Source of the DNA: Escherichia coli
GTDB lineage: Bacteria; Pseudomonadota; Gammaproteobacteria; Enterobacterales; Enterobacteriaceae
NCBI RefSeq assembly: GCF_003334255.1
Contig: NZ_QOWU01000068.1
Direction: 5' to 3' (one strand)
DNA length: 22,032 bases
The notes beneath the pieces were generated by a model, which made no database searches, was not told the origin of the DNA, and saw only the letters and a list, made by a program, of their open reading frames with translations. The number at the start of each line of letters is the position of its first letter. Positions within the stretch are counted from its first letter, which is position 1. The position numbers and the translations under genes were made by a program. Shown here one piece after another: positions 1,531 to 22,032 of this stretch.

Positions 1531-1559
1531 CTCATGTGAGCATGAAACAGGTGACAGCG

Positions 1560-2033
1560 ATGAAAGTGATTCTGGCGACCCGCAACCGTTATCTGGAGTA
1601 TGGCCTGCAGCAGATGCTTGAGGGGTACAGGATAATACTGGCGAGGGAGTTTTTTACACCAGAGAACAGGAAGAGCGTACCGGCACATGATGAGTCATGG
1701 GTGATAATCTGTGATGCCCTCCTTGGCAGGCTGATGTGCTGCATGTTTCAGGGGCGCCGTTATCTTCAGATTGATGCGGAAGATGTTACGGGGCGCCTGG
1801 AGACGTACAGGAAAATCCGGAATGGTGAGTGGGTACATAATACGTATGCGCGACCACTGACGATGTCCGAGATGGTGGTGATGTTTGGATACGTGTACCG
1901 GGAGTCAAAGCCCTGCCATCTTGCCCGTGAAATGGGGATAAACACGAAGACGGTGAACACCTTTCTGTATCTGGGGCTTGGTAAAAACGGTCTTAAGTAC
2001 AGGAGTGTGAAGCACCTGGTTGGACGTGCGTAG
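1560..2033 (+). CDS. Putative small transcriptional regulator with C-terminal LuxR/GerE-type HTH
   Basis: ORF track gives 1488-2033. The start at 1488 lies inside the terminator hairpin and has no SD; ATG at 1560 (MKVILATRN...) has AGGTGA 5 nt upstream. C-terminal segment LTMSEMVVMFGYVYRESKPCHLAREMGINTKTVNTFLYLGLGKNGL matches the spacing of the LuxR/GerE HTH pattern (LT.RE.EVL ... S.KEIA..L.IS.KTV). N-terminal part has no recognisable receiver residues. Family assignment is by eye only. Confidence 0.45.
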   Translation: MKVILATRNRYLEYGLQQMLEGYRIILAREFFTPENRKSVPAHDESWVIICDALLGRLMCCMFQGRRYLQIDAEDVTGRLETYRKIRNGEWVHNTYARPLTMSEMVVMFGYVYRESKPCHLAREMGINTKTVNTFLYLGLGKNGLKYRSVKHLVGRA

Positions 2034-2390: not shown

Positions 2391-2741
2391 TTACACAAAT
2401 CTATGTACAGGCTCTATTTCCGGAAGTCCGTATTTTGCCCGTGCGCGGCTACATGCTTCATTCGCGATGTCATTTTCGCCGGACATTGCGAATTCCCTGC
2501 ATGTGGACGGACGGTTTTTGTAAACAGAGCAATATGCGTTTTCACCCGGAGTTCCCGCCAGAGCGACACATCGGGGCTTTTTCTGATTGGTGCCGCTCAT
2601 ACAGCGATGAAAAGGAGATATTTGCTCAGTGAGAGTGGCCGGGACGTTTCCGCCAGCATCATCGGCTTCAGCCCAGTAAAAAGAGACGCGGAAAAATACA
2701 CAACAGGCACCACACGTCATGCATGGATTGGGGTTATTCAT
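2391..2741 (-). CDS. YkgJ/UPF0153-family putative zinc/iron-chelating protein (CxxCxxCC)
   Basis: 116-aa ORF. N-terminal motif [11 protein letters not shown] plus further Cys (CMSGT, CVALAG, CSVY, CREF) is typical of the YkgJ-type Cys-rich domain. Overlapping plus-strand ORFs 2403-2756 and 2435-2632 have no motifs. Start-codon context is weak. Confidence 0.65.
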
Positions 2742-2879: not shown

Positions 2880-2967
2880 TGGCGGAAGCGCAGAGATTCG
2901 AACTCTGGAACCCTTTCGGGTCGCCGGTTTTCAAGACCGGTGCCTTCAACCGCTCGGCCACACTTCC
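2880..2967 (-). tRNA. serT: tRNA-Ser (anticodon UGA)
   Basis: Reverse complement reads GGAAGTGTGGCCGAGCGGTTGAAGGCACCGGTCTTGAAAACCGGCGACCCGAAAGGGTTCCAGAGTTCGAATCTCTGCGCTTCCGCCA: 88 nt, long variable arm, anticodon loop CUUGAAA, encoded CCA end. Matches E. coli serT from memory. Confidence 0.95.
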
Positions 2968-20693: not shown

Positions 20694-20999
20694 TTAGCGT
20701 GTAGTGGACGTGGTGGTTGAGGTGTTATGAGAACCGCCATCGCCACTGTCATTTGCTGCAACAACTGCCAACGTCGCCACACCAACAGCCGTTGCCACAC
20801 CGACAACTGTCGCCGTGCCGACAGCGCCAGCAGCCACGCCACCAGTGGTAGTAGCAGTCGTGGTTGCGCCGGTAGTGGTCGTTGTGGTGCCAGTAGTACC
20901 CGTCGTTGCCTCGGTCCCGTTTGTTGCTTCAGGGGCAGCAAACGCAGCTGGCGTCGTCAACATGAAGGCCATAAGGATTGCAGAAAGCTTGTGTTTCAT
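20694..20999 (-). CDS. gfcA: Threonine-rich group-4 capsule protein (YjbE-like)
   Basis: 101 aa from ATG at 20997-20999 (MKHKLSAILMAFMLTTPAAFA signal peptide), followed by a Thr/Gly/Ala/Val low-complexity tract. The ORF track extends 6 codons upstream. Confidence 0.88.
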   Translation of the reverse strand: MKHKLSAILMAFMLTTPAAFAAPEATNGTEATTGTTGTTTTTTGATTTATTTGGVAAGAVGTATVVGVATAVGVATLAVVAANDSGDGGSHNTSTTTSTTR

Positions 21000-21440
21000 A
21001 ACTTTTCCTTTATTCATCGCATGGACAATACGTACGCTTGAGATCAGGATTGTCTACTTTGAGTATAACATCCTTGTGAAATCTCCCTTTCCTCATACCG
21101 CTTGCACTATATACTGCGGGTAGGAAAGGCGCGCAGAGGGAAATATAAGATTGTTAACTATCCCCCTCTGGAAATACGACTTGTGAGCATAAGATAAATC
21201 TTAGCAAAATACAAATTAAAGATAAGGAAATTGTTACGAAAGCTATTAATTATTGTTGGTAATATAGTTTCAAGTGGTACTATAACTGGCTGTTAAATGG
21301 CATTTATAACTATTAGGTGCAGAGATATTCGCTTAAATGGATTAGTTTCTTTGTGGAAAAGTAACTGATGTTATAATGTATGATGTTGACTATTGCACTA
21401 TTCCAATAAAACCAGTCAGCTTTAAACAAGCAGCGTCATA
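21000..21440 (-). promoter_or_regulatory. gfc operon promoter / upstream regulatory region (AT-rich), also the cspH 3' flank
   Basis: About 440 bp of markedly AT-rich non-coding DNA upstream of gfcA with no IS sequence in it; contains inverted repeats CAGAGGG...CCCTCTG (about 21150-21187). Confidence 0.4.
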
Positions 21441-21653
21441 TTAAGAGAGATAAACATTTGCCGCTGTTGGTCCTCGCAGGCCATTTACGCGGCAAAATTC
21501 CACACGTAATCCTGGTATAAGCACTTCTGCGTCGCGGGGAGTGAATGCGGAAATATGGACCTGAACTTCTTTACGACCGTCGGAGGGGATAATGAATCCT
21601 TTGCCGCTTTTGCGATCAAAGGTTTTGACAATTCCTGTCATTTTACGGGACAA
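21441..21653 (-). CDS. cspH: Cold-shock-like protein CspH
   Basis: 70-aa cold-shock-domain protein ([26 protein letters not shown]...). The first codon in this sequence is TTG (plus-strand caa at 21651-21653), with SD AAGGA 6 nt upstream. Confidence 0.88.
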
Positions 21654-21938
21654 ACAAATTCCTTACTGAAAATACTGCGCTGCACTATACGGGGTTAATA
21701 AAATAAAGCCAGCGATATTTAAGACCGCCGGACGGCTAAAATAAAATTTGCTTAATCTCAATTATCATGCGTTAATAGCTGCGTCGGTTTGAAAGACAGA
21801 CAGCATACAAAGTAGTTTACTAAAGCAGTTCTCATTATCAGGCATTATCCCCTTCTTTTGAGTCTCTCTCCTGAACACTAAGTAGTTTCTGTATTAAAGC
21901 CCTGTTTGCCGAAAGGCCCAAAATGAAGGAAGTAAAAT

Positions 21939-21955
21939 ATGTCTAATAAAATGAC
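21939..21955 (+). pseudogene. cspG: cspG 5' fragment (first 17 nt, MSNKMT), interrupted by IS1
   Basis: ATGTCTAATAAAATGAC encodes M-S-N-K-M-T, the cold-shock protein N-terminus, divergent from cspH as cspG is in E. coli. The reading frame then runs straight into the IS1 terminal repeat and stops after 7 IS1-derived codons. Confidence 0.6.
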
Positions 21956-22032
21956 GGTGATGCTGCCAACTTACTGATTTAGTGTATGATGGTGTTTTTG
22001 AGGTGCTCCAGTGGCTTCTGTTTCTATCAGCT
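21956..22032 (+). mobile_element. IS1 insertion sequence, left (insA-proximal) end, truncated by the window edge
   Basis: GGTGATGCTGCCAACTTACTGATTTAGTGTATGATGGTGTTTTTGAGGTGCTCCAGTGGCTTCTGTTTCTATCAGCT matches the IS1 terminal inverted repeat and the start of insA (GTG GCT TCT GTT TCT ATC AGC = M/V-A-S-V-S-I-S) as I recall it. Junction position is ambiguous by 1-2 nt. Confidence 0.9.

Follow-up and report, generated by a model that had tools for sequence, protein, structure and literature searches.

At the end of a 22,032-nt stretch of Escherichia coli DNA (contig NZ_QOWU01000068.1; hereafter, the window), the first codons of a cold-shock gene run directly into the terminal repeat of IS1, which raises the questions of whether cspG is disrupted in this strain, how the disruption arose, and what it would mean for CspG and its neighbours. 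The preliminary description of this DNA placed the IS1 17 nt into cspG, and we found an exact junction between cspG nt 17 and IS1 base 1: cspG nt 1-17 (ATGTCTAATAAAATGAC) lie at 21939-21955, and IS1 follows directly (GGTGATGCTGCCAACTTACTGATTTAGTG...) from 21956 to 22032. Alignment of window 21640-22032 with the loci of two intact references, K-12 MG1655 and strain SW070917, revealed that every base is the same until 21955 and that the match is abruptly lost at 21956, where intact cspG reads TGGTTTAGT (in a longer stretch, TGGTTTAGTAAAATGG). An exact match of 77 nt that opens with the outermost base of a known element is far too long to be due to chance. Read from 21939, the hybrid frame encodes MSNKMTVMLPTY and then meets a stop, which is the seventh full codon within IS1, just as had been proposed. 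No intact cspG ORF is present in the window: a complete cspG has 70 codons and encodes a cold-shock domain with RNP1 and RNP2, whereas here 17 nt of coding sequence precede IS1 and the frame is over after 12 codons. The predicted disruption of cspG is thus confirmed, and the element in the window is a disrupted allele, not a functional cspG gene. The features of the locus are collected in Table 1.

Table 1 Features of the window around the cspG-IS1 junction, and IS1 copies near cspG in other genomes. Signed positions are relative to the cspG ATG; the copies in other genomes lie within about 1.15 kb of the locus.
Feature	Position	Strand	Basis or remark
Empty K-12 IS1D target, single GACAATACG	21024..21032	.	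Window compared with MG1655
cspH, intact, divergent from cspG	21441..21653	-	70-aa product 100% identical to SW070917 CspH; K-12 synteny
cspH-cspG intergenic region, unaltered; cspG promoter and long 5' UTR	21654..21938	+	100% identical to K-12 and SW070917
cspG first 17 nt (codons 1-5 and two bases of codon 6)	21939..21955	+	Alignment with intact loci
Hybrid ORF, 12 codons then stop	21939..21977	+	Stop codon 21975-21977; translation
Predicted left copy of target-site duplication, 9-bp TAAAATGAC (AAAATGAC if 8 bp)	21947..21955	+	Holds Met5 ATG; predicted from IS1 habit and neighbouring copies
IS1 left end, nt 1-77	21956..22032	+	Same orientation as cspG; 77/77 to IS1A-type copies
IS1 IRL	21956-21978	+	Exact match to 23-bp terminal inverted repeat, reading GGTGATGCTGCCAACTTACTGAT
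insA promoter-like hexamers	21963-21990	+	Promoter-like site scan
insA GTG start	22011	+	K-12 insA begins at IS1 nt 56
K-12 IS1	-906
JP538 IS1	-287		At cspH start; annotated cspH start truncated
2EC1 IS1	-275
AF14 IS1	-204
LF3-1 IS1	-133
EC4 IS1	-99
SCU-176 IS1	-9
UGAG01000001.1 (L009) IS1	+19		Duplication AAATGACTG
CP055037.1 (L014) IS1	+26		Duplication GGTTTAGT
1008S13 IS1	+218

The fragment upstream of IS1 encodes MSNKMT, an N-terminus that CspB and CspI have in common with CspG, and it might on that ground be taken for the start of cspB or cspI. The surrounding DNA leaves this reading with practically no probability. The 515 nt from cspH to cspG nt 17 (21441-21955) matched an intact cspH-cspG reference (743 nt, BLAST) at 515/515 positions and agree at every base with the K-12 cspH-cspG locus, across all 285 nt of the intergenic region too. 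The fragment is divergent from cspH, lies downstream of gfcA and is preceded by the long 5' UTR specific to cspG; the gene order of the window (hyaA-F, appCB-cbdX-appA, etk, etp, gfcE-A, cspH) is that of K-12; and cspG is the RefSeq annotation beneath the matching stretch in thousands of genomes. An origin in cspB or cspI (the preliminary description had named a different csp paralogue as an alternative) is thus refuted by the identity of the intergenic region and cspH together with the synteny, and sequence and synteny agree that the MSNKMT fragment abutting the IS1 repeat opposite cspH is cspG. The 18 other window proteins tested, from hyaA to cspH, are all intact and are common alleles that match the complete SW070917 genome at 100% identity, so the region is not generally decayed. 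We also considered a Shigella origin for this DNA, but saw no degraded sequence in it. The cspG 5' UTR is 155 nt long and contains a cold box, and the downstream box begins 14 nt past the initiation codon (PMC6719143). This published length would put the start of cspG transcription near 21784, and the precise location of the promoter is inferred. In an Rfam scan of the window at the gathering threshold, the sole match was a tRNA, and there was no match to the cspA-thermoregulator family.

IS1 is an element of ~768 bp that carries insA and insB', joined by a programmed -1 frameshift, and ends in a right inverted repeat. Its left end alone is represented here: the terminal repeat is present, the window ends at IS1 nt 77, and we found no second IS1 end in the 22,032 nt. 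The 77 nt are identical to the corresponding bases of IS1A-type copies found near cspG in other genomes (77/77 against L001, L002, L003 and L014) and differ at one position from K-12 IS1D (76/77). The window includes the insA GTG start and 7 codons; this GTG shares the reading frame of cspG, with three stops between them.

The preliminary description stated that K-12 has an intact cspG and an IS1 between gfcA and cspH, and this proved correct: MG1655 carries IS1D there, with a 9-bp duplication (GACAATACG), and no IS1 is present at that site in the window. The K-12 copy resembles the window copy in element family, orientation and neighbourhood, and it has a 9-bp duplication; unlike the window copy, it sits between genes, 906 nt ahead of the cspG ATG, and has one mismatch in its first 77 nt. 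The region upstream of gfcA (20694-21440), where K-12 has IS1D, is unbroken in the window. All gfc, etp and etk genes are intact in the window as well, and the strain may therefore express the group 4 capsule operon, which is silent in K-12.

We next considered how common the window allele is. A 173-nt query spanning the junction had no counterpart among 5,426 complete E. coli genomes (0/5,426), and the sole genome with at least 80% coverage of the query was SCU-176, in which IS1 precedes the ATG by 9 nt. The equivalent query with IS1 in the opposite orientation found only 1008S13 in these genomes, where IS1 lies between cspG and ymcF. Together with the empty IS1D site, the absence of the junction bears out the claim that the window carries an IS1 event distinct from that of K-12 and specific to its strain. 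The stretch from 100 nt upstream of cspG to 100 nt beyond its stop is unbroken in 5,405 of the 5,426 genomes, and no IS1 in either orientation was detected inside the cspG coding region in this set, in which a few partial cspG matches were not individually inspected. A flexible pattern joining the cspG start, 0-30 further nt and either IS1 end likewise returned 0 matches in JGI metagenome contigs and 0 in GTDB species-representative genomes. Because the junction is absent from the complete genomes, the metagenome contigs and the GTDB representatives, we consider the allele rare and strain-specific. The event itself, the standard disruption of a gene by IS1, is of a well-known type; the allele is new, but no new kind of biology is involved.

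The window presents a single IS1 end, and this would also be the case if IS1 had brought about an adjacent deletion or an inversion, or if two IS1 copies had recombined, in which case cspG, possibly with ymcF, ymcE, gnsA and more, would have been deleted or relocated. Larger changes at the locus do exist, since the region is missing altogether in 12-14 of the 5,426 complete genomes, and the etk-ymcF arrangement of EC23HZZ201 (H170, NZ_CP168035.1) is a further case. In that genome, the query finds a match at its ymcF end alone, beside a tyrosine autokinase gene, in what looks like a deletion joining etk to ymcF that removed the gfc operon, cspH and cspG. Two considerations nevertheless render a rearrangement unlikely in the window. 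Simple transposition is the most frequent outcome of IS1 activity, and every complete IS1 copy in the neighbourhood (10/10) is 767-768 bp long with direct duplications of 8-9 bp, which identifies the ten as simple insertions. With a single IS1 end in view, insertion as opposed to an IS1-mediated deletion or rearrangement is a strong inference, and given the ten neighbouring copies, a simple insertion with duplication of TAAAATGAC (or AAAATGAC) is the most likely reading. Under simple insertion, an IS1A-type element of 768 bp would have entered the AT-rich start of chromosomal cspG, after nt 17 and in the same orientation as the gene. The far junction would then read ...AAGTTGGAGTCATTACC followed by TAAAATGAC (or AAAATGAC) and TGGTTTAGTAAAATGG, with the rest of cspG beyond the far IS1 end. 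When a possible 72-aa far-side product, starting at a TTG within IS1, was looked up by exact protein sequence, no match was returned.

That the window ends so soon after the junction raises the possibility of an assembly artefact, or of a junction that exists in only part of the sequenced population, since the window would be a short-read contig ended by repeats. The IS1 tail is exactly 77 nt, which may reflect a common largest k-mer of de Bruijn assemblers; the first 77 nt of the window fall in the start of a prophage YadA-like gene and recur in 18 of the 5,426 complete genomes, at 1-3 copies in each; and the length of 22,032 nt is not a round number. These properties point to an entire contig from a short-read assembly with k = 77, with repeats at both ends. 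Where a contig extends k bases into a repeat, however, the adjacency is still backed by reads, and a break falling exactly at IS1 nt 1 is what a real transposition, and not a chimera, would produce. Near-identical natural insertions also exist at cspG nt 19 and nt 26. We therefore regard an artefact or a mixed population as highly improbable, and simple insertion remains the reading we follow below. At the opposite end of the window, the YadA-like gene encodes a trimeric autotransporter of 487 aa (10-1473, + strand), possibly of the Eib immunoglobulin-binding type, and is followed by features at 1551-2033 (+) and 2391-2741 (-) and a tRNA at 2883-2967 (-). This segment was found in only a few complete genomes; at related loci, the YadA-like gene sits at one end of a lambdoid prophage, beside a tRNA annotated by RefSeq as tRNA-Ser in one related genome.

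The insertion point fits the known target preference of IS1. Targets of IS1 are AT-rich and 8-9 bp long, and 9-bp duplications arise in 78% of events (PMC10359306). GC content within ±15-25 nt of the insertion is 0.26-0.27, compared to 0.44 for the whole cspG coding region, whose first 30 nt are its most AT-rich part; 9-mers containing at most two G/C are concentrated at cspG nt 1-10 and 20-30, and the gfcA-cspG region as a whole has a GC content of 27-40%. A census with a 550-nt query turned up three more IS1 alleles, and in total at least 11 distinct IS1 sites lie within ~1.15 kb, from gfcA-cspH to cspG-ymcF (L001-L004, L009, L014, L026-L029 and window 21956), seven in the orientation of cspG and four inverted. 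The stretch from gfcA-cspH to cspG-ymcF is thus a regional AT-rich target zone for IS1, and the clustering is a small further example of AT-rich regional targeting by this element.

Two of the neighbouring copies are the closest counterparts of the window allele. Like the window, L009 and L014 have IS1 in the AT-rich first 26 nt of cspG, in both cases as a full 768-bp copy; unlike the window, they carry the element at nt 19 and nt 26, not nt 17, and in the opposite orientation, and the L009 copy is a divergent variant (about 91% identical). The three are independent events and not one allele, and their positions at cspG nt 17, 19 and 26 fit the preference of IS1 for AT-rich targets. In SCU-176, AF14, 2EC1, JP538, EC4 and LF3-1, IS1 entered the same AT-rich region as in the window, with 9-bp duplications, but there the cspG coding region is intact and it is the promoter or UTR that would be affected. 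A more distant parallel comes from laboratory-evolved MG1655, in which IS1 disrupted the coding region of another CspA-family gene, cspC, with a 9-bp duplication (PMC5460176); in contrast to the window, that case involves a paralogue that is not cold-inducible, arose in experimental evolution and affects coding positions 51-59 of 210 (PMC5460176).

The repeated use of cspG by IS1, and by the IS5-type elements described below, raised the possibility that the cspH-cspG region, and the first 26 nt of cspG in particular, is a recurrent landing pad that reflects selection for loss or rewiring of cspG and not its AT content alone. In the window allele, the strong cspG cold-shock promoter and UTR also lead into sense-oriented insA, which could make IS1 expression, and hence transposition or its repression, responsive to cold. 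We consider this reading very unlikely. The examples internal to cspG come from a look-up of the product starting at Met5, a search that favours N-terminally disrupted genes among NCBI records, and this ascertainment bias weakens any claim of a hot spot at the 5' end of the gene. The site would have been picked through the AT-rich preference of IS1, and no special mechanism would be needed.

We then asked what the insertion would do to CspG. In the window, the intact cspG promoter region and 5' UTR now lead into the 12-codon hybrid ORF and then into sense-oriented IS1. On the far side, the Met5 ATG would be kept within the duplication, heading an open frame of 66 codons that spans the whole cold-shock domain. 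This frame would sit about 777 bp from the promoter, the cold-box UTR and the Shine-Dalgarno sequence, with the downstream box divided by the element; the sole candidate ribosome-binding motif for it is a GGAG in the IS1 IRR, 12 nt upstream of the ATG. Since what remains of the gene would be cut off from these elements, CspG is expected from the sequence to be lost or strongly reduced in this allele. Residual production of CspG(5-70) from read-through transcripts, by way of the retained ATG and the GGAG in the IRR, is possible.

Effects on flanking genes can be weighed in the same manner. IS1 insertions are classically polar, and ymcF starts just 10 nt past the cspG stop, so ymcF-ymcE-gnsA may be affected by polarity. 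It had also been suggested that the IS1 end alters expression of the divergent cspH, and for this we found no support: the promoter in the IRL points inward, 302 nt of unchanged DNA separate the junction from the cspH start, and a promoter-like site scan detected no minus-strand site at the junction. The phenotype of losing cspG alone is probably mild, and nearly silent, because the cold-inducible Csp paralogues are redundant. In a recent assay of rRNA transcription, little effect was seen for CspG (PMC12562117).

The strain is thus probably a natural cspG mutant, which is worth knowing where it is used in cold-adaptation or food-safety work, and the junction could act as a clonal marker; beyond annotation of this strain, the significance is small. 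Such alleles can also be overlooked. In an assembly collection, cspG is called from Met5, with a 66-aa product, in 44,736 blocks, and because the predicted duplication keeps the Met5 ATG, a 66-aa CspG downstream of IS1 would probably be annotated as intact and the disruption missed. The duplication retains this ATG for an insertion at cspG nt 17 or nt 19, and in L014 the IS1 end (...ATCACC) together with GGTTTAGT mimics cspG codons 5-7. In the annotation of genomes with such insertions, a 66-aa CspG still appears, seemingly intact.

The start of cspG has also been entered by elements with IS5-type ends, in two records (CP142568.1 and CM132769.1) that, like CP055037.1, are in GenBank but absent from the RefSeq E. 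coli collection. In CP142568.1 (L006 2884-2992), a 109-bp element lies in cspG codons 2-3 with a CTAA duplication and ends in IS5-type 16-bp terminal inverted repeats (GGAAGGTGCGAATAAG...CTTATTCGCACCTTCC). Among the 5,426 complete E. coli genomes, 32 carry this element at 100% conservation, with 1-31 copies each and on plasmids too, and it has the look of a MITE that is kept active by an IS5-type transposase; its interior we take to be unlike IS5. An IS5-ended element of ~1.2 kb occupies the same CTAA in cspG codons 2-3 of CM132769.1 (L012 1797-2992), again with a CTAA duplication, and CTAA is a known IS5 target (PMC5493358).
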